A stretch of DNA of 64,000 bases. Source: Antedon mediterranea (taxonomy: Eukaryota > Animalia > Echinodermata). The stretch spans positions 3,038,001 to 3,102,000 of the forward strand of contig NC_092680.1 in the NCBI RefSeq assembly GCF_964355755.1. Reading direction: 5' to 3'. This document shows, piece after piece, positions 4,501 to 64,000 of the stretch. Under the pieces are notes generated by a model. That model had not been told where the DNA came from. It saw nothing but the letters and a program-made list of their open reading frames with translations, and made no database searches. Position 1 is the first letter of the stretch. Each line of letters starts with the position of its first letter. A program made the translations under genes and the position numbers.

Positions 4501-7500
4501 TATGTTTATACCTTTTATCATTTTCATACACTGGTCATGATGGTCAGCCCTAGCACATGAAATATCCGGCTTTAAGTTCTCACTGGTAAAATTACTCCTC
4601 ATAGCTTGACATTTGTTATACTCCGCATCAGATATGACACAAAAACGAGCAGTTCCAGATGGACATGCTGTAAGGCCTATATGTAAATCAAGAAAACCAT
4701 TTATACCAATATTTAATAAAATCTTGTTATTTTAATATTTTAAAAAATAAGTAAAGTAAATAATTTTATTTGGAAATTAGTAAAATAATTTCTAAAGAGA
4801 AGGAGATATGCACCACTGGGAGATATGCCTGTGTATCATTTCACTATGAGTACTACTACTGTATCTCATCTGCTACGATCCTCTAGGTCATAGGACAACT
4901 AGAACTAGTAAACAAAACAAGGAATATTGCAAATGAATACTAAATTTGACATGGAATCATGTATATAATTTAATCTCTTTATTAAAACCTAATTACCAAT
5001 TAGTAACCATACATTTTAAGTTATTAATAAATAAACTTGCCTCTGATAGTAAGCAGATATGCTTCACCAAGATATTCCTCATAATCAGTGCTTTCTGTGT
5101 TCTTTAACATTATGGTGCTGTCTTTAAACATCAGATCTGTTCCTTGGTATGCCTCTGATTCAAACATTTCAAACAATGGATTGTCATCAGCAGCAAAAAA
5201 TACCTAAAAATAATTCAATATTTCATTTTCAAATAAAATCATCTTAGTTTAATAATATTACAGTTCACCCACCTATCTGAACACCAGAAAATCGCCCAAA
5301 AATTAGACATTTCTTTAGGTACAAAGGGCTTCAAATTCTTTTTTAGCATTAAAAGACATTGAGAATAACTGGAAAACCAATATTAAGCCAGCCCAAGTTA
5401 TATTGAGAGCGTCGACGGTATTTTTTTTTTTTTTTTGTATTTGCAAGAAAGCGGTCTACAATGAATTTCCATATGTACCAATAAAACATAACACTACACT
5501 TTATAGTAACAGTACTTCCTTTTTATGTTATACTTTAAGCCTGGTTTCCATAAATTGCTACATGACAGAGCATAGCGATTCTATGGAAACGCTAGAATAT
5601 ATCGGGGATCTAGTACGCGAGCGCTAAATATTCTTTGGTACGCGTATACGATTCATCGCCGACAAAATCGGCAAAGTTGAACATGGTTGAACTTTGCCGA
5701 TTTGACTGCGAAGAATCGGCGACATCTGCGCGTGTAGCGATTTTAATGGAAACACTGTAGCGATTTTAATGGAAAGCAGGCTTTACATGCACAACCTTTC
5801 TGCAAGGCCCAATAAAATGGAATCTTGCAAGTTACATTTTAATATTGTCTTTGTTTATTAATGCTGTATGGACACAATACCTTGCAAATGATTTATCCAG
5901 GGACCAATAATATGGAATCTTGCAAGTTACATTTTAATATTGTCTTTGTTTATTAATGCTGTATGGGCCCCAATACTTTGCAAAACCTTTCTGCAAGGAC
6001 CAATAAAATGGAATCCTGCAAGTTACATTTTAATATTGTCTTTGTTTATTAATGCTGTATGGGCCCCAATACCTTGCAAAACCTTTCTGCAAGGACCAAT
6101 AAAATGGAATCTTTCAAGTTACATTTTAATATTGTTTTTGTTTATTAATGCTGTATGGGCCCAATACCTTGCAAAACCCTTCTGCAATGCCCAATAAAGT
6201 TGAATCTTGCAAGTTACATTTTAATATTGTCTTTGCTTATTCATGCTGTATGGGCCTAATACCTTTCAAAACCTTTCTGCAATGCCCAATAAAGTTGAAT
6301 CTTGCAAGTTACATTTTAATATCATCTTTGTTTATTAATGCTGTATGGGCCCCAATACCTTGCAAAACCCTTCTGCAATGCCCAATAAAGTTGAATCTTG
6401 CAAGTTACATTTTAATATTGTCTTTGCTTATTCATGCTGTATGGGCCCCAATACCTTGCAAAACCCTTCTGCAAGGCCCAATAAAGTTGAATCTTGCAAG
6501 TTACATTTTAATATCATCTGTGTTTATTAATGCTGTATGGGCCCCAATACCTTGCAAAACCTTTCTGCAATGCCCAATAAAGTTGAATCTTGCAAGTTAC
6601 ATTTTAATATCATCTTTGTTTATTAATGCTGTATGGGCCCCAATACCTTGCAAAGGATTTCTCCAGGGACCAATAAAATGGAATCTTGCAAGTTACATTA
6701 ATATTTTCTTTGTTTATTAATGCTATATGGGTGCAATACATTGCAAGGAATCTCTGTAAGTACCAATAAAATCTAATTTTGCAACTTTACTACTAACAGT
6801 ACTACATTTTTTTTTGGACATTGGCAGAAAGTCAACTACCCAAATATTATGGCCAATTTGAGATTTAAAACATGTGGCAGACAAATCAGGTTTTCTAAAA
6901 CAGGAATCTTCAAACAATCTTTATTATTTCACCTTGATTACTTTGGCTACGATTCAAACTTTAATATATCCGATTGTTTCACCAAAGGGAATTTACCTTT
7001 TTTAAGGATTATTTTGAGACAAGGAAGATTGTATCTACAATTTCTATTTTGAATAAGCTAATTTATTAAACGGAGAATTCTTATCACCAAACAGTCATGC
7101 GAGATCGTTATTAACTGACTGATCTCGCATTCGGCCGAGAACTTTCTATGATCTGATTGACAGAATGTTGTCATCAATGTTCCTTTATTTTACTTGCATC
7201 CATAGCAAGCAAATAGCTTATAATTACAGATACCTGCATAAGGCTTGAATTTTCTTCAAGGTGATAATGTGGGACCATATCGGTTCTCTCATACAGGTTA
7301 TATAGTATAATATTATACTGCATCTGTAGAACGTTTTGTGGGTACCCATTTTGTGTTAGACAGATGGCAATGAACAATGGATACCGATTTCGAATAAAAA
7401 CTGAAATGTATTTGTTAAACGTTTTCGTATTGTTATGACTTAAACCATAAAGAAAATACAGTTTGTCATTGCCGATTATTAAGCAAGGTCTACTATTTAG

Positions 7501-21840: not shown

Positions 21841-31486
<9,646 letters not shown>

Positions 31487-44878: not shown

Positions 44879-45516
44879 GTGTGGTTTTTGCCAGGATTCC
44901 TGCTGTTCAAATGATGGTACAATTGTATCCCATTTTCCTTATACAGAGTATTGTATCCATAAATATTCTATTGTTACATAGCAGCAAACTTTTAAATCAT
45001 TTTCTGTAAGCATCCATGTTTATTCATTATGGATTTAGTCTATTATTTCAATTTACCAAATTGTCAGGAGATTTGTCTAGCTTTCATACACTCACACACA
45101 CTAATTTCATCTGAAAAAAAAAAACAATAATTGTTTAATATTAGTCAACTGTGAATAACGTAATCTTTGTCAATTAGTATATTTTCATGGTTTTCTATTG
45201 AATTTTATCTACAAAAAAGATTGCAGAATCAGAATATTTACAGAGAAATTTATCAATTATTAATTGAGGCAAATTGTATCTTCTTGAATTATAAAGAATT
45301 TAAGCTATTAAGTGCACACAAGCATTTCTACTACCAGAACCATAAAGCAAGTGAGCCTCGAACCCTTGCTGATGTTATGGCTAATGGATTATGGTTCCAC
45401 TACTCGGCCACTCACCTACGTGAACATTTTTCCCATATTTTTGGTGATCAGTACAACAGAGTGAGTGGATGGTGCATCGTATAAGCACTAATTTTCTCTT
45501 TATACAACTTACTTGA

Positions 45517-46582
45517 TTAATATATTTTATCTTGTTGTGGTTGATCTAGGCCTAATTCCTCTGGAGTTTGAATGCCCAATTCATCAAGTGTCGGTCTTAC
45601 TTCTTGCAAAATATATGGGTAGATATTCTTATGACCTCTAGATTTGTCCTGCAAAATTAATTAATTATTAATTAATAGTATCAATTATTTGTAACAACTA
45701 ATTTGATTAATGTGATGTACTACTACACTACATTTTCAACCGGTACACACTACAGTATTTAGTAGTACTAGTAGAATTTTAAAAAAGACTTTTAGGAAAG
45801 AGAAAAAGAATTTATGATTTGGAAAGTGTATTTTTGTGAAAGTATTGCTGATTACTAACTTTGACAGCTTCTAGGATACGGATTGCCATAGCTGTATCAT
45901 TAAGTCTTCTGCAAGCTTTGAACGCTGCAATTAAAATCTTAGGCTCTGGGACAAGATCATGGCCATGAAGCTCATTTAAACCTCTTCGCAATTCCCAATC
46001 ATCAATCTCGGGCCGATTGAAATACGCCTCCCATCGTGCATCAAATTGCTCATCTGTTTCTTGTACTTTTGAAGAGAAAAGCCTGACTGATGCTACTGCA
46101 AAAGATAAAATGATTAAAATATAATTATTTATTCAGCAGTTTTCTGTATTTGTAGGCCTAATAGTAGGCCTAGGGTGGTACTGTAGGCTGTGGAATTATG
46201 AATGTTACATTGCGAAATTTAATTGTCACAAGTTCCTGGGGACACACTTTCAGCTCATCATCATAGCAGCCAGGCTAGCTACTACAGCACTATACTAAGC
46301 AGTCAATCCTTGCCCCCACCTCCACAACCCAATACTAGCTAGGCCTAGGCCTACACTCGGTCCCTACCAAGCTCCCGGCAAAATGATGTTCTTCGCCCTC
46401 TGTGAGTTTATTTAGTGCATGTTGTGTAGGCCTAGCTAGGCCTACTAGATTCTATAATGTGACCTCAATAATACATTAAAGAAGAGACCTAACCAGCACT
46501 TACCTGCAGGTCTATTCAAATATTGCGCTTGTAGTACAGATCTACATACAGGATTTAGCCGGAGAACAATCTGACGAAACAT
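45517..46582 (-). CDS. COX5A: Cytochrome c oxidase subunit 5A, mitochondrial precursor (148 aa)
   Basis: Exons 46504-46582 (presequence [14 protein letters not shown]), 45860-46095 ([44 protein letters not shown]), 45517-45648 ([24 protein letters not shown]). A likely 3'UTR intron lies at 45111-45512. Confidence 0.96.
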
Positions 46583-47049
46583 AATGCTTATTATTTGCTG
46601 CTTTACAGCGATATTAGTTAAAACGTTGGATTGAGTTCTTGCAACAAAAACCAAAATGGACGAACCGGCAACAATTCCCACAATTCCCAATGTTAAATAT
46701 GGAACGCCTCCTCTGCCTTCAGTGTACATTAAACATGCAGTTCACACCACCAATCGCCTCCCAATCGTACGTCATGCAGTACATACCAATGGTCATGCAG
46801 TACATATGGAACGCCTCCTCTGCCTTCAGTTCACATTTATCATGCAGTACTATTTAGGCCTATATTTGTTATTAAACTTTGTTTACAGATGGTGACCATA
46901 CAAGCAAATGCGGACAATAAAGGGTCCCTCAAATATGATTTTTTGATTTAGACAGTAAGCCCCAGGGCTGAGTCACAGAATTCAGCGCACACATGCAGCT
47001 GGCCAAACCCTGGCACCACTTTCCCTACACAAACAAACACATATAATGA

Positions 47050-47345
47050 AATGTAATGTTGTTTGAATTATATAGCGCTTATACAATCAAAAGATTGTCT
47101 ATAAGTGATGAGAGAAAAAACAGAAAGAAATTACAAAGAAGACAGGTTTTTAAGAGTGTTTTGAAAACTATAGGATGCATTTTTAATAGGATCAGGAAGA
47201 TTGTTCCACAGTTTAGGAGCTGCAACTGCAAAAGTTTGATATATGTCTTAAGGCGGCTGGGAGGAACAAAAAGTGCAGATGGATTAGTAATCGACCTAGG
47301 AGATCTTTTGCAAACTGAAGGTGTGAAAGGAAGATTGGAAATTTA
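47050..47345 (-). mobile_element. L2/CR1-group LINE 3' fragment
   Basis: Minus strand encodes FAVAAPKLWNNLPDPIKNAS, the typical ORF2 tail. Confidence 0.65.
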
Positions 47346-48159
47346 AGAAGTTTATTGATTTTCTTTCGTGATTGGTGGACAGTTTTTAAAATTATTTTAT
47401 TACCCTATTAATGCTGTTAAATGCATTTAATATTTAAAAATTGTGCACTCAAGATTTTACTCTTGATGACTATTTTGTTTATGTGTTTAGTTTCGAACCC
47501 AAACCAGTATATGACCCGGGAACATGTTCTATTAATGACTGTGTGTGTTCTCTGGTTCCAAATGGAACCCATGTTTTAGTATGAATTACCTATGAAAATG
47601 AAATAGATTTAATACTATTCCAACATATTATCAATAATAATAAATCATTCTGTAATTTCATTAAAGAAACAATACATTTATAATATTTGTTATTAATATC
47701 ATGTACTGTACGTTGCTAAATGTATTATATTATACAAAATTAAGATCATCATTAGTCTGGCTTCCATATTGGAAACACGCAAGCCTCGCTACCACGTCAA
47801 GGTTGATGATCACAGCGAGGACTTACCTGTGGTTGGTTCCATGTCAAAAACTGTATCTTCCTGTTTTTTCCTGCAATTCCACCATTCATGTATATCTGTT
47901 AGATGGGCTGGTCCGGATATAATCTTCTATGCCACCTACTATGAAGTATCATATCATGTTGAAACCTGCTTAAGAAAAACTATAGTCACCTTAAGGGAAA
48001 GCTTACAATACCAATGCCATCTTACACATTTCCAAAAAATAACCAATATAAAATGCATTAAAACCTAAACCTGTATATTCTTAGCAACACACACAACCTG
48101 CAGTGAAAATTTACAATACCAAGATATAATGCCACCTTACACATTATATAGAATACATT

Positions 48160-49830
48160 TTCTAAAAAAAAACAACTTAAACCTGTAGATTCTTGGCTAC
48201 ACACAACCTGCAGTGAATATTTTTTTATACCAAGATATTCAATTCACTAAAAATAACCTGATTTGAAGTGCATTGCAACTTAAACCTGTAGATTCTTAGC
48301 TACACACAACCTGTAGTGAACATTTTTTAAACCAAGATAATGAATTTATTAAAAATAACCTGAAGTGCATTGCAACTTAAACCTGTAGATTCTTAGCTAC
48401 ACACAACCTGTAATGAACATTTATTATACCAAGATAATGAATTTATTAAAAATAACCTGATTTAAAGTGCATTGCAACTTAAACCTGTAGATTCTTAGCT
48501 ACACACAACCTGCAGTGATAAATTTATTATACCAAGTTAATGAATTTATTAAAAATAACCTGATTTGAAGTGCATTGCAACTTAAATCTGTAGATTTTTA
48601 GCTACACACAACCTGTAGTGAACATTTATTATACCAAGATAATGAATTTATTAAAAATAACCTGATTTAAAGTGCATTGCAACTTAAACCTGTAGATTCT
48701 TAGCTACACACAACCTGCAGTGAACATTTATTATACCAAGATAATGAATTTATTAAAAATAACCTGATTTGAAGTGCATTGCAACTTAAATCTCTAGATT
48801 TTTAGCTACACACAACCTGTAGTGAACATTTATTATACCAAGATAATGAATTTATTAAAAATAACCTGATTTAAAGTGCATTGCAACTTAAACCTGTAGA
48901 TTCTTAGCTACACACAACCTGCAGTGAACATTTATTATACCAAGATAATGAATTTACTAAAAATAACCTGATTTGAAGTGCATTGCAACTTAAATCTCTA
49001 GATTTTTAGCTACACACAACCTGTAGTGAACATTTATTATACCAAGATAATGAATTTATTAAAAATAACCTGATTTAAAGTGCATTGCAACTTAAACCTG
49101 TAGATTCTTAGCTACACACAACCTGCAGTGATAAATTTTTATACTAAAATAATGAATTTACTAAAAATAACCTGATTTAAAGTGCATTGCAACTTAAACC
49201 TGTAGATTCTTAGCTACACACAACCTGCAGTGAACATTTTTTATACCAAGATAATGAATTTATTAAAAATAACCTGATTTGAAGTGCATTGTAACTGAAA
49301 CCTCTAGATTCTTAGCTACACACAACCTGTAGTGAACATTTTTTAAACCAAGATAATGAATTTATTAAAAATAACCTGATTTGAAGTGCATTGCAACTTA
49401 AACCTCTAGATTCTTAGCTACACACAACCTGCAGTGACCATTTGTTATACCAAGATAATGAATTTACTAAAAATAACCTGCTTTGAAGTGCATTGCAACT
49501 TAAACCTCTAGATTCTTAGCTACACACAACCTGTAGTGAACATTTATTATACCAAAACAATGAATTTATTAAAAATAACCTGATTTGAAGTGCATTGCAA
49601 CTTAAACATGTAGATTCTTAGCTACACACAACCTGCAGTGAACATTTATTATACCAAGATAATGAATTTAATAAAAATAACCTGATTTGAAGTGCATTGC
49701 AACTTAAATCTCTAGATTTTTAGCTACACACAACCTGTAGTGAACATTTATTATACCAAGATAATGAATTTATTAAAAATAACCTGATTTGAAGTGCATT
49801 GCAACTTAAATCAATAGATTTTTAGCTACA
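48160..49830. repeat. Tandem satellite C, 103-bp unit, ~16 copies, related to the 157-bp B unit
   Basis: Unit aaacctgtagattcttagctacacacaacctgcagtgaacatttattataccaagataatgaatttattaaaaataacctgatttgaagtgcattgcaactt; period 48481->48584. Confidence 0.95.
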
Positions 49831-50218
49831 CACACACAACTAAAGCTTATAATACCAAGATATAATGCCACCTTACACATTATATATAATAATTTACAAA
49901 AAATATTTAAAATTATTTGAAATGCACTGAAACTTAAACCCCTAGGTTTTTTAGCTACACATAATTCAGTATATCTTAGCAACACACATACCTGTAGGAA
50001 AAGCTTACAATACCAAGATATTGCCACCTTACACGTAATATATATAATAATTTACAACAAATATTTAAAATTATTCAAATACATACCTGTAGAGAAAACG
50101 CAAACCAAATGTATCTTAAATGTGTTTAGTTAGATTTGTATTTGTAGATGCATATAATAATGCTATCTGAAATGAGTAATAGTAAAGAACAATTATTATG
50201 TGCAGGTTGTGTTGTATG

Positions 50219-53200
50219 CTTACCTGTGATTGGTTCCAACAGCCTTGCATCAGTATCTCCATATCTGAAAAGGGAAAATGTGAAAAAATTTAATTATACC
50301 ATTGCATAGGCCTTGATGTTTCTTACCTGTGATTGGTTCCAACACTCTTGCATCGGTATGGCCATAACTGAAAAGGGAAAATATAAAGAAATTTAATTAT
50401 ACCATTGCATAGGCCTTGATGTTTCTTACCTGTGATTGGTTCCAACAGCCTTGCATCAGTATCTCCATACCTGAAAGGGAAAATATAAAGACATTTAATT
50501 ATACTATTGCTTAGCTTTTGATGTTTCTTACCTGTGATTGGTTCCTACAGTCTTGCATCGATATGTCCATATCTGAAATGAGAAAATTTAAACAAAATTA
50601 TTATACCATTGAATAGACTGGATATTTCTTACCTGTGATTGGTTCCAACAGCCTTGCATTGGTATGTCCATATCTGAAATGAGAAAGTTTAAAGAAATTT
50701 AATTATACCATCCATAGGCTATGATATTTCTTACCTGTGATTGGTTCCAACAGCCTTGCATCGGTATGTCTATATCTGAAAAGGGAAAATATCAAGACAT
50801 TTATTATACCATTGCATAGACTTGATATTTCTTACCTGTGATTGGTTCCAACAGCCTTGCATCGGTATGTCCATATCTGAAAAGGGAAAATATCAAGACA
50901 TTTATTATACCATTGCATAGGCTATGATGTTTCTTACCTGTGATTGGTTCCAACAGTCTTGCATCGGTATGTCCTTATCTGAAAAGATATTCTTAGCTAG
51001 CTACACATAATATATCTTAGTTACACACAAACTTACTAAGATATAATGCCACCTTAAAATGAATTTACAAAAAGTAACCTGATTTGAAATGCATAGAAAA
51101 CTTAAACCTCTATTCTTAACTACACTTATATTTCCTAACTACACACTGCAGGGAAATCTTACAATACTAAGATAATGCCACCTTACACATTATAGATAAT
51201 AATTTACAAACACATGTTTAACATTTTTTTAAGGCACTGAAACTTAAACCTCTGCGTTCTTAGCTACACTTAATACAGTATACCTTAACAACAAACATAC
51301 CTGCAGGAAAAGCTTACAATACCAAAATATAATGCCACCTTACACATAATATATCATAATTTACAACACATATTTAACATTATTTGAAATGCACTAAAAC
51401 TTAAACCTCTACGTTCTTAGCTACACTTAATTCAGTTATCTTAGCAACACACATACCTGCAGAAAAAGCTTACAATACCAAGATATAATGCCACCTTACA
51501 CATTATAGATAATAATTTACAACACATATTTAACTTTATTTGAAATGCACTGAAACTTAAACCTCTACGTTCTTAGCTACACTTAATTACAGTATATAAC
51601 ACACATATCTGCAGAGAAAAGCTTACAATACAAAAATAATGCCACCTTATATCATAATTTACAACAAATATTTAAAATTATTCAAACACATACCTGTAGA
51701 GAAAACGCAAACCAAATGTACCTTACCTTTGTTTAGTTAGATTTGTATCTGTATAGGTGCATGCTATCTGAAATGAGTAAGAGTAAAGAACAATTATTAT
51801 TTGCAGGTTTTGTTGTACTTACCTGTGATTGGTTCCAACAGTCTTCCATTGATATGTTCATAGCTGAAAAGAGGAAATATAAAGAAATTTAATTATACCA
51901 TTGCATAGGCTTAGATGTTTCTTACCTGTGATTGGTTCCTACACTATTGCATCGATATGTCCATATCTGAACAAGGGAAAATATGAAAAAAATTTAATTA
52001 TACCATTGCATAGGCTTTGATATTTCTTACCTGTGATTGGTTCAACAGTTGTGCATCGATATGTCCATATCTGAAAAGGGAAAATATGAAAAAATGTAAT
52101 TTTACCAATACATCTTTGATGTTTCTTACCTGTGATTGGTTCCAACAGTCTTGCATCGGTATGCCATATCTGAAAAAGGAAAATATAAATAAATTTAATT
52201 ATTCCATTGCATAGGCTTTGATTTTTCTTACCTGTGATTGTTTCTAACAGTCTTGCATCGGTATGTCCATATCTGAAAAGGGAAAATATAAGAAATTTAA
52301 TTATACCAATACATCTTTGATGTTTCTTACCTGTGATTGGTTCCAACAGTCTTGAATTGGTATGTCCATATCTGAAAAAGGAAAATATAAAGAAATTTAA
52401 TCATACCATTGTATAGGCTTAGATGTTTCTTACCTGTGATTGGTTGCAACAGTCTTGCATTGGTATATCCATATCTGAAAAGGGAAAATATAAAGACATT
52501 TAGTATATCATTGCATAGCCGTTGAGATTTCTTACCTGTGATTGGTTCCAACTGTCTTGCATTGGTATGCCCATATCTGAAAAGGGAAAATATAAAGAAA
52601 TTTAATTATACCATTGCATAGGCTTTGATGTTTCTTACCTGTGATTGGTTGCAACTGCCTTGCATCAGTATATCCATACCTGAAAGGGAAATATAAAGAA
52701 ATTTAATTATACTATTGCTTAAGTTTTGATGTTTCTTACCTGTGATTGGTTCCTACAGTCTTGCATCGATATGTCCATATCTGAAATGAGAACATTTTAA
52801 GAAAATTATTATACCATTGAATAGACTGGATATTTCTTACCTGTGATTGGTTCCAACAGCCTTGCATTGGTATGTCCATATCTGAAATGGGAAAATATCA
52901 AGACATTTATTATACCATTCCATAGGCTATGATGTTTCTTACCTGTGATTGGTTGCAACTGCCTTGCATCATTATGTCCATACCTGAAAAGAGAAAATAT
53001 AAAGAAATTTAATTATACTATTGCTTCGGTTTTGATGTTTCTTACCTGTGATTGGTCCAACAGTCTTGCATCAGTGCGTGCATATCTGAAATGAGAAAGT
53101 TTAAAGAAATTTAATTATACCATTGCATAGACTTGATATTTCTTACCTGTGATTGGTTCCAACAGCCTTGCATCGGTATGTCCATATCTGAAAAGGGAAA

Positions 53201-56200
53201 ATATCAAGACATTTATTATACCATTGCATAGACTTGATATTTCTTACCTGTGATTGGTTCCAACAGCCTTGCATCGGTATGTCCATATCTGAAAAGGGGA
53301 AAAAAATAAAGACATTTATTATACCATTGCATAGACTTGATATTTCTTACCTGTGATTGGTTCCAACAGCCTTGCAACGGTATGTCCATATCTGAAAAGG
53401 GAAAATATCAAGACATTTATTATACCATTGCATAGGCTATGATGTTTCTTACCTGTGATTGGTTCCAACAGTCTTGCATCGGTATGTCCTTATCTGAAAA
53501 GATATTCTTAGCTAGCTACACATAATATATCTTAGTTACACACAAACTTACTAAGATATAAAGCCACCTTAAAATGAATTTACAAAAAGTAACCTGATTT
53601 GAAATGCATTGAAAACTTAAACCTCTATTCTTAACTACACTTATATTTCCTAACTACACACGACCTGCAGGGAAATCTTACAATACTAAGATAATGCCAC
53701 CTTACACATTATAGATAATAATTTACAAACACATGTTTAACATTTTTTTAATGCACTGAAACTTAAACCTCTGCGTTCTTAGCTACACTTAATACAGTAT
53801 ACCTTAACAACAAACATACCTGCAGGAAAAGCTTGCAATACCAAAATATAATGCCACCTTACACATTATATATAATAATTTAAAACACATATTTAACATT
53901 ATTTGAAATGCACTGAAACTTAAACCTCTGCGTTCTTAGCTACACTTAATACAGTATACCTTAACAACAAACATACCTGCAGGAAAAGCTTACAATACCA
54001 AAATATAATGCCACCTTACACATTATATATCATAATTTACAACACATATTTAACATTATTTGAAATGCACTGAAACTTAAACCTCTACGTTCTTAGCTAC
54101 ACTTAATACAGTATACCTTAACAACAAACATACCTGCAGGAAAAGCTTACAATACCAAAATATAATGCCACCTTACACATTATAGATAATAATTTACAAC
54201 ACATATTTAACTTTATTTGAAATGCACTGAAACTTAAACCTCTACGTTCTTAGCTACACTTAATTACAGTATATAACACACATATCTGCAGAGAAAAGCT
54301 TACAATACAAAGATAATGCCACCTTACACATCATAATTTACAACAAATATTTAAAATTATTCAAACACATACCTGTAGAGAAAACGGAAACCAAATGTAC
54401 CTTACCTTTGTTTAGTTAGATTTGTATCTGTAGAGGTTCATGCTATCTGAAATGAGTAAGAGTAAAGAACAATTATTATTTGCAGGTTTTGTTGTACTTA
54501 CCTGTGATTGGTTCCAACAGTCTTCCATTGGTATGTCCATATCTGAAATGAGAAAGTATAAAGAAATGTAATTATACCATTGCATAGGCTTTGATGTTTC
54601 TTACCTGTGATTTGTTCCAACAGTCTTTCATCTGTATGTATGTCTGAAAACAGAAAATATAAAGAGATTTAATTATACCATTGCATAGGATTTGATGTTT
54701 CTTACCTGTGATTGGTTCCAACAGTCTTTCATCTGTATGTCCATATCTGAAGAGGGAAAGTATAAAGAAATTTAATTATACCATTGCATAGGCTTTGATA
54801 TTTCTTACCTGTGATTGGTTCCAACAGTTGTGCATCGATATGTCCATATCTGAAAAGGGAAAATATGACAAAATGTAATTTTACCAATACATCTTTGATG
54901 TTTCTTACCTGTGATTGGTTCCAACAGTCTTGCATCGGTATGCCATATCTGAAAAAGGAAAATATAAATAAATTTAATTATTCCATTGCATAGGCTTTCA
55001 TGTTTCTTACCTGTGATTGGTTCCAACAGTCTTGCATCGGTATGCCATATCTGAAAAAGGAAAATATAAATAAATTTAATTATTCCATTGCATAGGCTTT
55101 GATTTTTCTTACCTGTGATTGTTTATAACAGCCTTGCATCAGTACATCCATATCTGAAAAGGGAAAATATAAGAAATTTAATTATACCAATACATCTTTG
55201 ATGTTTCTTACCTGTGATTGGTTCCAACAGTCTTGAATTGGTATGTCCATATCTGAAAAAGGAAAATATAAAGAGATTTAATCATACCATTGTATAGGCT
55301 TAGATGTTTCTTACCTGTGATTGGTTGCAACAATCTTGCATTGGTATATCCATATCTGAAAAGGGAAAATATAAAGACATTTAGTATATCATTGCATAGC
55401 CGTTGAGATTTCTTACCTGTGATTGGTTCCAACTGTCTTGCATTGGTATGCCCTTATCTGAAAAGGGAAAATATAAAGAAATTTAATTATACCATTGCAT
55501 AGGCTTTGATGTTTCTTACCTGTGATTGGTTGCAACTGCCTTGCATCAGTATCTCCATACCTGCTGAAAGGGAAATATAAAGAAATTTAATTATACTATT
55601 GCTTAGGTTTTGATGTTTCTTACCTGTGATTGGTTCCAACAGTCTTGCATCGATATGTCCATATCTGAAATGAGAAAATTTAAAGAAAATTATTATACCA
55701 TTGAATAGACTGGATATTTCTTACCTGTGATTGGTTCCAACAGCCTTGCATTGGTATGTCCATATCTGAAATGGGAAAATATCAAGACATTTATTATACC
55801 ATTCAATAGGCTATGATGTTTCTTACCTGTGATTGGTTGCAACTGCCTTGCATCATTATGTCCATACCTGAAAAGAGAAAATATAAAGAAATTTAATTAT
55901 ACTATTGCTTCGGTTTTGATGTTTCTTACCTGTGATTGGTTCCAACAGTCTTGCATCAGTGCGTGCATATCTGAAATGAGAAAGTTTAAAGAAATTTAAT
56001 TATACCATTGCATAGACTTGATATTTCGTACCTGTGATTGGTTCCAACAGCCTTGCATCGGTATGTCCATATCTGAAAAGGGGAAAAAAATAAAGACATT
56101 TATTATACCATTGCATAGACTTGATATTTCTTACCTGTGATTGGTTCCAACAGCCTTGCATCGGTATGTCCATATCTGAAAAGGGAAAATATCAAGACAT

Positions 56201-59200
56201 TTATTATACCATTTCATAGGCTATGATGTTTCTTACCTGTGATTGGTTCCAACAGTCTTGCATCGGTATGTCCTTATCTGAAAAGATATTCTTAGCTAGC
56301 TACACATAATATATCTTAGTTACACACAAACTTACTAAGATATAATGCCACCTTAAAATGAATTTACAAAAAGTAACCTGATTTGAAATGCATTGAAAAC
56401 TTAAACCTCTATTCTTAACTACACTTATATTTCCTAACTACACACGACCTGCAGGGAAATCTTACAATACTAAGATAATGCCACCTTACACATTATAGAT
56501 AATAATTTACAAACACATGTTTAACATTTTTTTAATGCACTGAAACTTAAACCTCTGCGTTCTTAGCTACACTTAATACAGTATACCTTAACAACAAACA
56601 TACCTGCAGGAAAAGCTTACAATACCAAAATATAATGCCACCTTACACATTATATATAATAATTTAAAACACATATTTAACATTATTTGAAATGCACTGA
56701 AACTTAAACCTCTGCGTTCTTAGCTACACTTAATACAGTATACCTTAACAACAAACATACCTGCAGGAAAAGCTTACAATACCAAAATATAATGCCACCT
56801 TACACATTATATATCATAATTTACAACACATATTTAACATTACTTGAAATGCACTGAAACTTAAACCTCTACGTTCTTAGCTACACTTAATACAGTATAC
56901 CTTAACAACAAACATACCTGCAGGAAAAGCTTACAATACCAAAATATAATGCCACCTTACACATTATAGATAATAATTTACAACACATATTTAACTTTAT
57001 TTGAAATGCACTGAAACTTAAACCTCTACGTTCTTAGCTACACTTAATTACAGTATATAACACACATATCTGCAGAGAAAAGCTTACAATACAAAGATAA
57101 TGCCACCTTACACATCATAATTTAAAACAAATATTTAAAATTATTCAAACACATACCTGTAGAGAAAACGGAAACCAAATGTACCTTACCTTTGTTTAGT
57201 TAGATTTGTATCTGTAGAGGTGCATGCTATCTGAAATGAGTAAGAGTAAAGAACAATTATTATTTGCAGGTTTTGTTGTACTTACCTGTGATTGGTTCCA
57301 ACAGTCTTCCATTGGTATGTCCATAGCTGAAAAGGGAAAATATAAAGAAATTTAATTATACCATTGCATAGGCTTAGATGTTTCTTACCTGTGATTGGTT
57401 CCTACACTATTGCATCGATATGTCTATATCTGAACAAGGGAAAATATGAAAAAAATTTAATTATACCATTGCATAGGCTTTGATGTTTCTTACCTGTGAT
57501 TGGTTCCAACAGCCTTGCATCAGTATGTCCATATCTGAAAAAGGAAAATATAAAGAAATTCAGTTATACTATTGCTTAGGTTTTGATGTTTCTTACCTGT
57601 GATTGGTTCCAAAAGTCTTGCATCATTATGTCCATATCTGAAATGAGAAAGTATAAAGAAATGTAATTATACCATTGCATAGGCTTTGATGTTTCTTACC
57701 TGTGATTTGTTCCAACAGTCTTTCATCTGTATGTATGTCTGAAAACAGAAAATATAAAGAGATTTAATTATACCATTGCATAGGCTTTGATGTTTCTTAC
57801 CTGTGATTGGTTCCAACAGTCTTTCATCTGTATGTCCATATCTGAAAAGGGAAAGTATAAAGAAATTTAATTATACCATTGCATAGGCTTTGATATTTCT
57901 TACCTGTGATTGGTTCCAACAGCCTTGCATTGGTATGTCCATATCTGAAATGAGAAAATTTAAAGAAAATTATTATACCATTGAATAGACTGGATATTTC
58001 TTACCTGTGATTGGTTCAAACAGCCTTGCATTGGTATGTCCATATCTGAAATGGGAAAATATCAAGACATTTATTATACCATTCCATAGGCTATGATGTT
58101 TCTTACCTGTGATTGGTTGTAACTGCCTTGCATCATTATGTCCATACCTGAAAAGGGAAAATATAAAGAAATTGAATTATACTATTGTATAGGCTTAGAT
58201 GTTTCTTACCTGTGATTGGTTGCAACAGTCTTGCATTGGTATATCCATATCTGAAAAGGGAAAATATAAAGACATTTAGTATATCATTGCATAGCCGTTG
58301 AGATTTCTTACCTGTGATTGGTTCCAACAGTCTTGCATCACTGCGTGCATACCTGAAATGAGAAAGTTTAAAGAAATTTAATTATACCATTGCATAGACT
58401 TGATATTTCTTACCTGTGATTGGTTCCAACAGCCTTGCATCGGTATGTCCATATCTAAAAAGGGGAAAAAAATAAAGACATTTATTATACCATTGCATAG
58501 ACTTGATATTTCTTACCTGTGATTGGTTCCAACAGCCTTGCATCGGTATGTCCATATCTGAAAAGGGAAAATATCAAGACATTTATTATACCATTGCATA
58601 GGCTATGATGTTTCTTACCTGTGATTGGTTCCAACAGTCTTGCATCGGTATGTCCTTATCTGAAATGATATTCTTAGCTAGCTACACATAATATATCTTA
58701 GTTACACACAAACTTACTAAGATATAATGCCACCTTAAAATGAATTTACAAAAAGTAACCTGATTTGAAATGCATTGAAAACTTAAACCTCTATTCTTAA
58801 CCACACTTATATTTCCTAACTACACACGACCTGCAGGGAAATCTTACAATACTAAGATAATGCCACCTTACACATTATAGATAATAATTTACAAACACAT
58901 GTTTAACATTTTTTTAATGCACTGAAACTTAAACCTCTGCGTTCTTAGCTACACTTAATACAGTATACCTTAACAACAAACATACCTGCAGGAAAAGCTT
59001 ACAATACCAAAATATAATGCCACCTTACACATTATATATCATAATTTACAACACATATTTAACATTATTTGAAATGCACTGAAACTTAAACCTCTACGTT
59101 CTTAGCTACACTTAATACAGTATACCTTAACAACAAACATACCTGCAGGAAAAGCTTACAATACCAAAATATAATGCCACCTTACACATTATAGATAATA

Positions 59201-60569
59201 ATTTACAACACATATTTAACTTTATTTGAAATGCACTGAAACTTAAACCTCTACGTTCTTAGCTACACTTAATTACAGTATATAACACACATATCTGCAG
59301 AGAAAAGCTTACAATACAAAGATAATGCCACCTTACACATCATAATTTACAACAAATATTTAAAATTATTCAAACACATACCTGTAGAGAAAACGGAAAC
59401 CAAATGTACCTTACCTTTGTTTAGTTAGATTTGTATCTGTAGAGGTTCATGCTATCTGAAATGAGTAAGAGTAAAGAACAATTATTATTTGCAGGTTTTG
59501 TTGTACTTACCTGTGATTGGTTCCAACAGTCTTCAATTGGTATGTCCATAGCTGAAAAGGGAAAATATAAAGAAATTTAATTATACCATTGCATAGGCTT
59601 AGATGTTTCTTTCCTGTGATTGGTTCCTACACTATTGCATCGATATGTCCATATCTGAACAAGGGAAAATATGAAAAAAATTTAATTATACCATTGCATA
59701 GGCTTTGATGTTTCTTACCTGTGCTTGGTTCCAACAGCCTTGCATCAGTATGTCCATATCTGAAAAAGGAAAATATAAAGAAATTCAGTTATACTATTGC
59801 TTAGGTTTTGATGTTACTTACCTGTGATTGGTTCCAACAGTCTTGCATCATTATGTCCATATCTGAAATGAGAAAGTATAAAGAAATGTAATTATACCAT
59901 TGCATAGGCTTTGATGTTTCTTACCTGTGATTTGTTCCAACAGTCTTTCATCTGTATGTATGTCTGAAAACAGAAAATATAAAGAGATTTAATTATACCA
60001 TTGCATAGGCTTTGATGTTTCTTACCTGTGATTGGTTCCAACAGTCTTTCATCTGTATTTCCATATCTGAAAAGGAAAAGTATAAAGAAATTTAATTATA
60101 CCATTGCATAGGCTTTGATATTTCTTACCTGTGATTGGTTCCAACAGTTGTGCATCGATATGTCCATATCTGAAAAGGGAAAATATGACAAAATGTAATT
60201 TTACCAATACATCTTTGATGTTTCTTACCTGTGATTGGTTCCAACACTCTTGCATCATTATGTCCATATCTGAAAAGGGAAAATATAAAGAAATTTATTT
60301 ATACCATTGCATAGGCTTAGATGTTTCTTACCTGTGATTGGTTCCAACACTCTTGCATCGGTATGTCCATATCTGAAAAGGAAAAATATAAAGAAATTTA
60401 TTTATACCATTGCATAGGCTTAGATGTTTCTTACCTGTGATTGGTTCCAACAGCCTTGCATTGGTATGTCAATATCTTAAAAGGGAAAATATAAAGAAAT
60501 GTAATTATACCATTGCATAGGCTTTGATGTTCACCTGTGATTGCTTTCCTTGTATTGTCAAAACTAGAT
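50219..60569 (-). repeat. Compound tandem array: ~67 copies of a ~103-bp exon/intron-like unit (A) in five blocks, separated by ~0.85-1.0-kb spacers of 157-bp units (B) plus a linker
   Basis: A blocks ~50219-50985 (8 units), 51818-53500 (17), 54497-56285 (18), 57281-58668 (14), 59506-60530 (10). Measured period 54701->54804 = 103; B period 53761->53918->54075 = 157. The junction 'gatattcttagctagctacac' recurs at ~50985, 53500, 56285 and 58668. Confidence 0.95.
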
Positions 60570-61894
60570 CTGAAAAGAGAAGAAACATTATTTTATATGA
60601 ACATGTGATTTCTTTGTTTTAAGTGAAGAATTATACACTTTATTATAATTCTTTCTACAATTTGTCGAGGTCTCCCAAATTTATTTTGCATGCTTTCTGT
60701 AACATTTTACATTTTACACAATAAACAATTGATGTGTTAGTATACATGTAACACTTATAGCTGTGTCTGCATTAACTAATAGTTGTCCCAAGAAACCTAA
60801 ATTGTCTGAAAAAAAAAAGAGAGTGCAGGGAAAAATTATTCTTATTATGTGCATACATAAAAACAGTAAAAGGCCCATATAAATGACAAAACATTTATTT
60901 GTGTAAATCTAAAATGTTACAGAAGTACGCGCAGAAACAAAAGCTACCTAAAATCTAACTGCAAAGTACAAGAAGTATAAATATTATGTGATTTAAACCT
61001 AAACATTCTTACTTGGAAATATAAGAATATAAAATAATATTACTTATCTGTCATAAGTGTAGAGAAGCACAACAGGAATAATAATACCAGTCAGCAGTCT
61101 GAGGACTGGAAGTAAGACCTGCAAAAAAAAATCTAACATCAAAAAATAAACAAAAAATAAATAAATATTTGTCCTTAAATAAGACAAGTACACTTAAATT
61201 GTATTATTATATTCTATAAAAGATTTAACCTATTCAATTCAACAATAAATGTTCCCGTATTAAAATTATACATCTCCCGAGGCCCCGAGACTCCTTTCCC
61301 GCTAGTAGATTGGGCTGAGTAGAAAATCAGACGACGTACGCAATGAACACCTGTGACGTCACAGTGACCGGGAACCAGTGAACGCGCTAAGCAGACGATA
61401 ATAACGGTTCGCGGTGATTTACTTTTACAAACCATAGCTCAATGTAGGCTCAGTTATTTTCGCTAAAATTGAAAAAAATAAACTATCTTGATGAAATCAG
61501 TGTTGTAAATAGTAATAGAATATATTGAAATTGAAAATTGGCAAATTTGTAGGCCAAAGTAGCATCAGGCTTATGCCTAAAATTTCAAACGAGTTGATCG
61601 AGGGCCTAGGCGAAGAAGTGGTTCATAAAATCAACATTTTCTGTATAAAAATGTGTCATTAAATAAGATAAAGAAGTAAATTATGAGCTAGGGCCTACTA
61701 AAAGACTATATTATAATTGATAACTCGTAATATTTTGTATTAGTGCATATTTTTAAACAAATAAAATACTTACCTCCTCTACGGTCCTTCTCTCTCTTGA
61801 TGTTTCTTCGTCGCCGCCAACTTACGAAATGACAACGTAAGTCGCCGAGTCGGTAACGTGACGAAAACTATCCAAATTGTTAGATGAACTTATT

Positions 61895-62010
61895 CTAACT
61901 GTGATTGGCTAAATCTTCGTTACTGTTTTTGCTGCAACTCGTTGATTGGTTAATCAATAATTACTGTTGCCCCCGCGTATTCTGAACTATCTCGGAACAA
62001 CGATTGGTCA
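61895..62010 (-). promoter_or_regulatory. CCAAT-box promoter candidate
   Basis: Three ATTGG motifs (ctgtgattggct ~61899, ttgattggtt ~61942, cgattggtc ~62001) just upstream of a CpG-containing exon that ends in a perfect GAG|GTAAGT donor at 61774. Confidence 0.45.
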
Positions 62011-62999
62011 ACTTTTTCACAGAAACACGTGTCTCCTGCATGCTACACACCAAACTCCGCCCAGAGGAAGTTTTAAGAACTTTTTTACTAGAGGGAGCTA
62101 TTCATGGTTGAAGAGTTGCCAGGATCATACAATAATGTTTTATGTTGTTATTATGTATAAGGACTTCAAAACGCATGGACAATTAGGTTATCAAAAGTTA
62201 TTAGCTTAGGGTGTCTAGATGATTGAATTTACGTTAGGTGGCAGTGTGATCGACGTTTCATGTCAAGTTAATATAGTAAACTTGTTTTAATCCATAAGAT
62301 TTAAACTTGAAGTTGATACTTATTAATAGATTAATTTGCTGAATGCATAAATCTAAAGCTGTACTTATTCGCAATATTTCAAACACCATAATATGAATAA
62401 CTAGAGCCTATAATAAAAGGCAACATGAACATTTTTTACCATAATAAACAACTAAACTAAATTAATATATATATTTGGCGGCAAGAACAATTGTATAATC
62501 AGTACAATACTACTACAGATTGTATGAATATTATGATTTTAAAACAAATTTGTTTAGAAATATATTAATAACGTGAAATGCTAGATGTCATAAATTAATA
62601 AATCTAATGTTTTAACAGTTATGAATTAACCGTATCTTATTTTTTTAATCATAATGTTATATGTTATTATTTCAATATGTTAAAATTAGTTACAGATGTC
62701 AGGATAGGCTTTTATGTTAGAATTAAGGCAAAAATAATTATTAGTCCTCTCTCCATGACGGTTGTCACATAATGCTTTCTATTATTTTTTATTGTATTTA
62801 TATGTTTCATATGGACAGTTTGTCTGAAATAAAGTTGAATTGAATTGAATTGAATAGTAATACTTTTTACATTTTATCTTCATTATACAACGACGAGACA
62901 ACTAAATTACGTAAACAGTTCACCGACATTTTTAGTATTATTACTGAAATTTGGAATGTGCAAAATCTATTCTAACCCGTGGTTAATTTTTATTCGGAC

Positions 63000-63040
<41 letters not shown>

Positions 63041-64000
63041 AAATATTATATATAATATACAGGATAAAACATATCAGATAACAGTGTATCTGTTTTACAT
63101 TGTGGTCCTGTCTTAATCAAAATATACAAAAGAGAAACTTAATTAAATATAATACAGTTTTTATGAAAAGAAATAAATAGTAATTAATACAACGATAATT
63201 AAATAAGAACAATTTTATAATAATCATTTATTTCAATTACCATATCTGCTATTTGTTAGTACATTTTTTACCAAATTGTGAACCACGATGGTGGTGAGTA
63301 TGTGTTTAAACATCGCGCTTCTCACTTTGTTTACTTACTTGTTTAAAAAAAAACATGTTTTCTGGAACAGTTTGGATGCCGTGTACGTTGTTATATGCAA
63401 ATGATTGCAGAGTGGGGAAGATGGTATTGTTATAGTCATTCGCGGTCAACACGCCACACTGTTAAATTTTGATGTTGTTAATCTTTACATTAGAAGATTA
63501 TTCAAATCATGTAAAGAAACAATTTTCCGAGCGGGAACCTAAAAGCTCCACTCTTAGTTTGCAAAAGTAATCTCGAAAAGAAGTCCATCTGGTTTGTCTC
63601 CGTTCTTGAATGGGGTTAATGGGAACTGATGAGATCAAATATAGAACATTTGTAAAGATGCCGATGCCTAGACCAGGCTTCGAAATTGGACTAATTCCCC
63701 GGCTGTGCTAGGCCTTAGGTATAATGTGATTATTGTAATTGTTTTATGAAAATTGGACAATTAAAATTGGTAACTAAAACGGCACTCTGAGTGCATACCT
63801 CCTCCTACTGTAAAATTCTCCTACATAAGATTTCATCGGGAAAAAAAATTAAATTTTTTATGTCTTAATGTGTGTGATTAGGCTAATTTCACTACAACCA
63901 TGTGTATGCGAATTTGGTGTAGGCCCTAATGGTTATGTAACCAGCCTTTCAACTAAAAATAGTTTAATTTGAATAACAATAGAACAGCCAACAACAAACG

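Follow-up and report, generated by a model that had tools for sequence, protein, structure and literature searches.

Why does one strand of an animal genome carry, over 10.35 kb, tandem copies of what looks like an exon complete with both of its splice sites? The question is raised by positions 50,219 to 60,569 of a 64,000-nucleotide stretch of the Antedon mediterranea genome (NCBI RefSeq assembly GCF_964355755.1, contig NC_092680.1, positions 3,038,001 to 3,102,000 of the forward strand), called here the window. The window consists of AT-rich animal DNA in which residues 1-75 of a named A. mediterranea protein have a 100% match; this, together with the COX5A match given below, marks the host as a crinoid, a feather star. 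An earlier note had described this array as a satellite whose unit is a splice cassette, and had offered four alternatives: a host of mirtrons or SNORD-like RNAs, a Dscam-like bank of cassettes, a sponge for the spliceosome, and neutral amplification. Among these, the spliceosome sponge is the one that we would prefer. In the form proposed here, the array would be the body of a gene for a long non-coding RNA (lncRNA) on the minus strand, active only in some stage or tissue, whose transcript loads splicing factors densely and is predicted neither to encode protein nor to release small RNAs. This explanation is tentative, and we give it somewhat less than an even chance. The array itself is real and well built and is probably under some selection, and its unit clearly derives from an exon with both splice sites.

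Anatomy of the array and conservation of its splice signals

A search of the minus strand of the window, anchored on the exon end and the donor, recovered 71 exons within 50224-60475, 67 of them canonical and four diverged. The 103-nt unit is composed of an exon of 39-41 nt and an intron of 58-64 nt (62 of the 62 introns within blocks fall in this range), which bears out the earlier description of about 67 tandem 41-nt micro-exons with introns of about 62 nt. The exceptions reported then are all present, namely the loss of GT in the unit at 59614, GTACG in the unit at 56032, and the TAG and AAG acceptors at 58455 and 60476. An exon does lie at 54706-54746, the example that had been chosen, but it is a variant that differs from the consensus quoted with it. 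The unit at 55520 has a CAGCAG acceptor, giving an exon of 41 or 44 nt.

Collapse of the assembly is ruled out as the origin of the array, since 44 of the 67 exons and 44 of the 62 introns are distinct and the mean pairwise identity of the units is 86% (range 76-100%). The depth of the unit in DNA runs, several hundred times the summed depth of the flanks, gives no copy number and is consistent with a genuine multi-copy repeat. Strong donor matches number 34-40 per 4 kb in the array against 1-8 elsewhere. The polyadenylation hexamer AATAAA occurs 18 times in the 10.35 kb of the array, against 2.2 times per kb elsewhere.

The units are tandem, as had been claimed, but the array is not continuous: it falls into five blocks of 10, 14, 18, 17 and 8 units, parted by spacers of about 0.75-0.92 kb that hold repeats of a second family. 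Each of the first four blocks closes with a diverged 41-nt exon, called A', a 33-nt GT..AG piece and several B repeats of 152-157 nt. Most units have a partner only 0-3 changes away in a different block, so the array grew by duplication of units followed by duplication of blocks of several kilobases. In the B repeats an acceptor directly abuts a donor at the unit border; 16 CAG|GTATGT junctions were counted, and GT has been lost at some borders. The 157-nt B repeats are akin to a 102-nt repeat that lies downstream of the array (alignment score 79, reached by none of 500 shuffles). Homology between the exon/intron units (A) and the B repeats is not significant, the scores being reached by 314 and 120 of 500 shuffles. 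In the 102-nt array, at 48173-49834 on the minus strand (1.67 kb), a unit holds at most two AATAAA, and a GT-rich stretch comes after the second; the hexamer is often mutated. Judged by its motifs, this array resembles tandem poly(A) sites where a locus ends.

A comparison of splice-site positions with the rest of the unit, already suggested in the earlier note, came out in favour of the signals. A tree was built from the 62 complete units, and parsimony changes were counted over it for 12 splice-signal columns, -3 to +6 at the donor and -3 to -1 at the acceptor. These columns have undergone 4 changes against 20.2 in base-matched columns (p=0.0002), and GT and AG alone 1 against 6.1 (p=0.03). 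Five of the six G/C columns within the signals are invariant, against one of 29 elsewhere. Since columns are not independent, the signal mask was also shifted round the unit: the signals then rank 2 of 103, and independent shifts of the two sites give p=0.027. A further AG within the last 30 nt is present in 1 of the 62 introns, the one ending in CAGCAG. Branch-point candidates occur at intron positions 33, 37 and 46. The last of these, a T-N-A triplet resembling a branch point with its A at -17, is intact in all 62 introns, which is weak evidence because A/T columns are often invariant.

The donor CAG|GTAAG is conserved, as had been stated, but the conserved zone is wider and runs from exon position -12 to intron position +8, including a CCAAT box. 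The YB-1 motifs given in the available part of PMC3458536 hold no exact match to this conserved exon end. In the three A' exons that were compared, the two splice sites and the length of 41 nt are retained, while identity in the body is 8-9/29 and the CCAAT box is gone; this box is likewise absent from a related exon at 47827. In the unit exon of all blocks, positions 12-14 hold the sole consensus CpG and its neighbour. Few columns have changed more often (7, 8 and 5 changes), which is consistent with germline methylation.

The predicted gene and the evidence from RNA

The array looks like the body of an lncRNA gene because it is flanked, all on the same strand, by a promoter-like region that carries three CCAAT boxes on one side and by a terminal exon on the other, itself upstream of COX5A (Table 1). 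The flanking exons were predicted by eye.

Five sequencing runs contain this stretch, none of them recorded as RNA. RNA was available from one run, X1, a single sample of unknown tissue that was identified as RNA by its COX5A joints. It exists only as contigs, so strand, level and rare junctions are unreadable from it. The contig comparison covered the edges of the locus, 60376-62300 (one unit and the 5' flank) and 44900-48170, with three runs each. In X1 the exons of COX5A are joined over two CT..AC gaps, one of 402 nt (depth 1354) and one of 408 nt (depth 1134), the lengths of its RNA-supported introns. A variant of the terminal exon, also found in DNA, is present in an X1 contig whose depth is 455; it spans 47321-47586 and continues into unrelated sequence, and comes from an expressed paralogue or a diverged allele. 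Judging from bin depths, the match of this contig breaks off near 47586, some 3 nt or less from the predicted acceptor, while DNA contigs extend past that point; coming from one study, this is a weak hint of transcription.

The locus may have relatives. Among the DNA contigs from one sample, 61433-61654 occurs in three versions at like depth, and the 3' end of the locus also has a second version in DNA contigs. In a diploid animal these would point to one paralogous locus or more, and the versions of the 5' flank suggest a small family of paralogous copies. Over the wider interval 61433-61865 at least three sequence versions are seen at like depth in one DNA sample. Within the predicted first intron, 61300-61365 (minus strand) holds a palindrome resembling a cAMP response element (CRE) and a further CCAAT, a possible second promoter; X1 contigs of depth 5 lie at 61344-61593.

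Table 1. Features of the array, of its predicted gene frame and of the downstream neighbour (positions in the window)
Feature	Position	Strand	Basis or remark
Promoter-like region, CCAAT boxes at 62009, 61951 and 61910, oriented as the array	61895-62015	-	motif scan; predicted
Predicted first exon, ends GAG|GTAAGT, 5' end guessed	61774-61850	-	by eye; little or no X1 cover
Predicted exon 2, strong acceptor, donor AA|GTAATA	61044-61118	-	by eye; no X1 cover
Predicted exon 3, strong acceptor, weak uncertain donor	60755-60805	-	by eye; no X1 cover
35-nt exon related to that of the unit but diverged, with CAG|GTGAAC as its donor	60535-60569	-	
Block 1, 10 exon/intron units	59511-60475	-	anchored exon search
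Diverged 41-nt exon A'	59415-59455	-	length and both splice sites kept, body at background identity
Spacer 1, 33-nt GT..AG piece and 152-157-nt B repeats joined by CAG|GTATGT	58660-59414	-	junctions resemble dual sites
Block 2, 14 units	57286-58659	-	anchored exon search
Block 3, 18 units	54502-56277	-	anchored exon search
Block 4, 17 units	51823-53493	-	anchored exon search
Block 5, 8 units	50224-50978	-	anchored exon search
Further A' copies	57190-57230, 54406-54446, 51727-51767	-	decayed one near 50120-50165
Other copies of the spacer	56278-57189, 53494-54405, 50979-51726	-	
102-nt B-family repeat, 16.3 copies, CAG|GTTGTG junctions	48173-49834	-	21 AATAAA on the minus strand
Predicted penultimate exon, 44 nt, related to the unit exon, without CCAAT box, donor CAG|GTAAGT	47827-47870	-	no RNA joint among those listed
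Predicted terminal exon, acceptor 47590, AATAAA near 47400	47390-47589	-	variant abundant in RNA run X1
COX5A, downstream neighbour	45520-46582	-	RNA control; spliced joints in X1

The second exon of COX5A is 92% identical to the protein of the crinoid Anneissia japonica, and its 3' untranslated region contains an RNA-supported intron (45110-45513) that begins a few bases past the stop codon. Two other repeats lie elsewhere in the window. One is a 96-nt tandem repeat of 10 copies at 5788-6772, in an intron of a gene that by eye is transferrin-like. The other is a 21-nt coding repeat of 14 copies at 25627-25917 (minus strand), within a large exon of a gene resembling TGS1.

Explanations of the array

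How could such a gene work? Transcription would start from the CCAAT promoter near 61900, probably only in some stages or tissues, oocytes being the most plausible guess by analogy. The nascent RNA would then present a donor and an acceptor every 103 nt. The vertebrate minimum from donor to branch point is about 50 nt. Here that distance would be only about 32-45 nt, so neighbouring exons would probably be joined poorly, and the RNA would either stall with U1 and U2AF bound or be spliced by skipping, from exon n to n+2 or further (jumps of 165 nt and longer). The outcome would be a chromatin-held ribonucleoprotein rich in splicing factors, as in the chicken repeat RNA LL2R.

An intron of 62 nt is short for the clade, where the first intron-length mode of sea urchin is about 526 nt and that of Saccoglossus about 106 nt (supplement of PMC6157073, in the portion available, with the meaning of the column inferred and crinoids not covered). 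The accessible part of the same paper gives a first mode of about 86 nt for vertebrates. As far as the accessible part of PMC5435141 goes, canonical introns are a minority below 70 nt in human data, and the corresponding part of the crinoid genome paper gives mean intron length alone (PMC13079724). A fuller version of the lncRNA reading would have some 75 exons in a stage-specific echinoderm transcript, whose 41-nt exons and sub-minimal introns were selected against the joining of neighbours; it would serve as a spliceosome depot bound to its locus, yield combinatorial skipped isoforms, differ from the donor-rich LL2R in its balanced sites and belong to a small paralogous family. We consider this version unlikely.

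Several observations weigh against a gene that loads splicing factors. A join from exon end to exon start on the unit is absent among the listed joints of the 65 X1 contigs over 60376-62300, and those listed on the unit are genomic continuations from one unit to the next. X1 depth is alike over the exon and intron positions of the unit (about 220-300), and no X1 cover is seen over 60571-61285, which includes predicted exons 2 and 3. On the unit, the ratio of X1 to DNA depth is 0.017-0.023, lower than the 0.06-0.13 obtained for a COX5A intron and for six bins of dispersed repeats, so the array is not enriched in X1; the measure is crude and draws on different DNA runs. Evidence on transcription of a single strand of the array comes from the contigs of one RNA run, where the array stands at background level. 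Among the signals, exon positions -12 to -4, the CCAAT box, are as conserved as the donor (3 changes against 16.3, p=0.0014), the donor alone ranks merely 12 of 103 in the shift test, the acceptor alone is marginal (p=0.06), the tract shows no significant bias towards keeping pyrimidines (8:6 against 15:30, p=0.13), and one copy has lost its GT. One contig-level sample of unknown tissue cannot, for its part, show silence in other stages.

Neutral amplification becomes a strong rival because the single RNA run yielded no spliced or enriched array transcript. It would have an exon and stubs of its flanking introns duplicated silently in a decaying or duplicated gene, with motifs that were inherited and look conserved by chance, after recent block duplication and gene conversion. 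The blocks are indeed recent, near-identical copies that represent few independent events, the shifted null gives only p of 0.02-0.03, and a 62-nt interval would follow automatically from breakpoints in two flanking introns. Nevertheless, neutrality leaves aside the concentration of invariant G/C columns in the signals, the retention of splice sites in A' and the flanking relatives while the exon body decays, and the intact promoter-like and terminal elements; we regard it as possible, though on the whole doubtful. Selection could instead act on DNA, with the CCAAT box and a CAGGT core (which we take to be NF-Y and E-box-like binding sites) maintained as an enhancer or chromatin element, while the likeness to a splice cassette would be a legacy of the ancestral exon. 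In agreement with this, the array has 61 minus-strand CCAAT-box matches, its best-conserved 20-nt window is centred on the CCAAT box, and outside the array CCAATCAC is seen 6 times where about 1 occurrence would be expected. In metagenome contigs, a 22-mer scan gave no match and a 17-mer scan gave 71 loci, about chance level by our own estimate and none similar beyond the core. In three of these (L026, L033 and L043, two distinct repeats) the same core builds acceptor-less minisatellites. These minisatellites (L026 1940-2310, L033 1890-2240, and L043) are unrelated, animal-like repeats with units of 71-74 nt and 2-3 donor-like motifs per unit. However, a DNA motif leaves the acceptor and its AG-free tract unexplained, and the A' and 47827 exons kept both splice sites after losing CCAAT, which makes this explanation improbable in our judgement.

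Explanations that call for a product fare worse. The array could be a source of small RNA, either because splicing stalled on too-short introns feeds piRNA or siRNA production (links between stalled spliceosomes and RNAi exist in fungi) or because excised introns persist as stable RNAs. The repeated layout, dense in splice signals, suits this idea, and so does a complementarity of 10 pairs between exon and intron in which 91% of cells are paired. However, the mirtron fold of the earlier note, a hairpin with the splice sites as its ends, is found in just 1 of 44 distinct introns (mean minimum free energy -4.1 kcal/mol, mean z 0.11). Folded whole, six units are no stabler than shuffles, and neither is one intron-exon phase (z -0.75 to +0.84 overall), and the hairpin shows no covariation (2614 of 5000 shuffles reach its value). 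A scan of 46000-64000 with Rfam, at E up to 5, left the array empty and gave one chance-level histone stem-loop match outside it. The mirtron or SNORD-like host is therefore not upheld, and we give the small-RNA source in general little probability. A microRNA hairpin overlapping the splice site was rejected as a candidate, its folds being no stabler than shuffles and lacking covariation. Sliding folds (220 windows, 20 shuffles each) gave a few windows of low z with weak energies of -12 to -25 kcal/mol. As for a coding bank, Dscam-like or of the micro-exon gene type, that would vary peptides by exon choice, the consensus exon has no stop in any of the three frames, as the earlier note had pointed out, and the same is true of many copies. 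However, 41 nt does not preserve the frame, and 39 of the 67 exons carry a stop in some frame, in keeping with the doubts raised at that time. Joined in order, the 71 exons have 20-24 stops per frame, and their longest stop-free stretch, 199 codons, does not exceed the mean of 206 for shuffled order. No real protein relative was found: a 153-codon genomic frame had no match in protein searches. One protein match, to the translation of a repeat with a 110-residue period (pairwise E 3e-4), was discarded as spurious. Coding is thus very improbable, and what survives of the Dscam-like idea is that steric skipping is plausible as an outcome of splicing.

If transcribed, an lncRNA gene of this kind would be a natural experiment, in 67 variant copies, on the minimal exon/intron spacing tolerated by a deuterostome spliceosome. 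It would also be a candidate for an architectural RNA of invertebrates with a role in loading splicing factors. A silent array would still be an unusually clear example of a satellite born from an exon and its splice sites.

Comparison with known systems

No report of such an echinoderm array was found in open-access papers, subscription papers lying outside the search. The closest known system is LL2R, the chicken lumpy-loop repeat RNA, whose nascent transcripts recruit small nuclear ribonucleoproteins (snRNPs) and SR proteins in oocytes and which has been proposed to recruit parts of the spliceosome through incomplete splicing (bioRxiv 10.64898/2026.03.19.712899, in the part available). According to that part, LL2R shares with the array a tandem arrangement on a single strand, a monomer identity of about 86% and a high density of splice signals. 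It differs in its 446-bp units, its retrotransposon promoter and a transcription that has been shown in oocytes, whereas the array has 103-nt units inside the predicted frame of an ordinary gene and is known here from sequence. LL2R also has a more than 3-fold excess of donors, while the array is balanced, with one donor and one acceptor per unit, a further point against the lncRNA reading. In addition, LL2R is poor in poly(A) signals, and the array is not depleted of them, nor is the downstream 102-nt array. Since these two features of LL2R, donor excess and poly(A) depletion, failed here, the array may work like LL2R without being one.

FIRRE is an lncRNA with locally repeated exons (RRD), in which the repeats, unlike those of the array, are far fewer, longer and parted by ordinary introns. 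The host genes of SNORD115/116, SNORD113/114 and rat Bsr are, in the available part of PMC11028025, non-coding genes built of tandem exon-intron units, a likeness that the array shows at sequence level. Their introns hold box C/D snoRNAs, whereas the 62-nt introns of the array have no Rfam family and no fold. As for the spacers, dual-specific AG|GT sites occur in the tandem repeats of UBC, and the B repeats are likewise joined by YAG|GT, one per unit; however, UBC is coding and its dual sites are shown to be used, while those of the B repeats are candidates (PMC10809524, as far as its available part goes).

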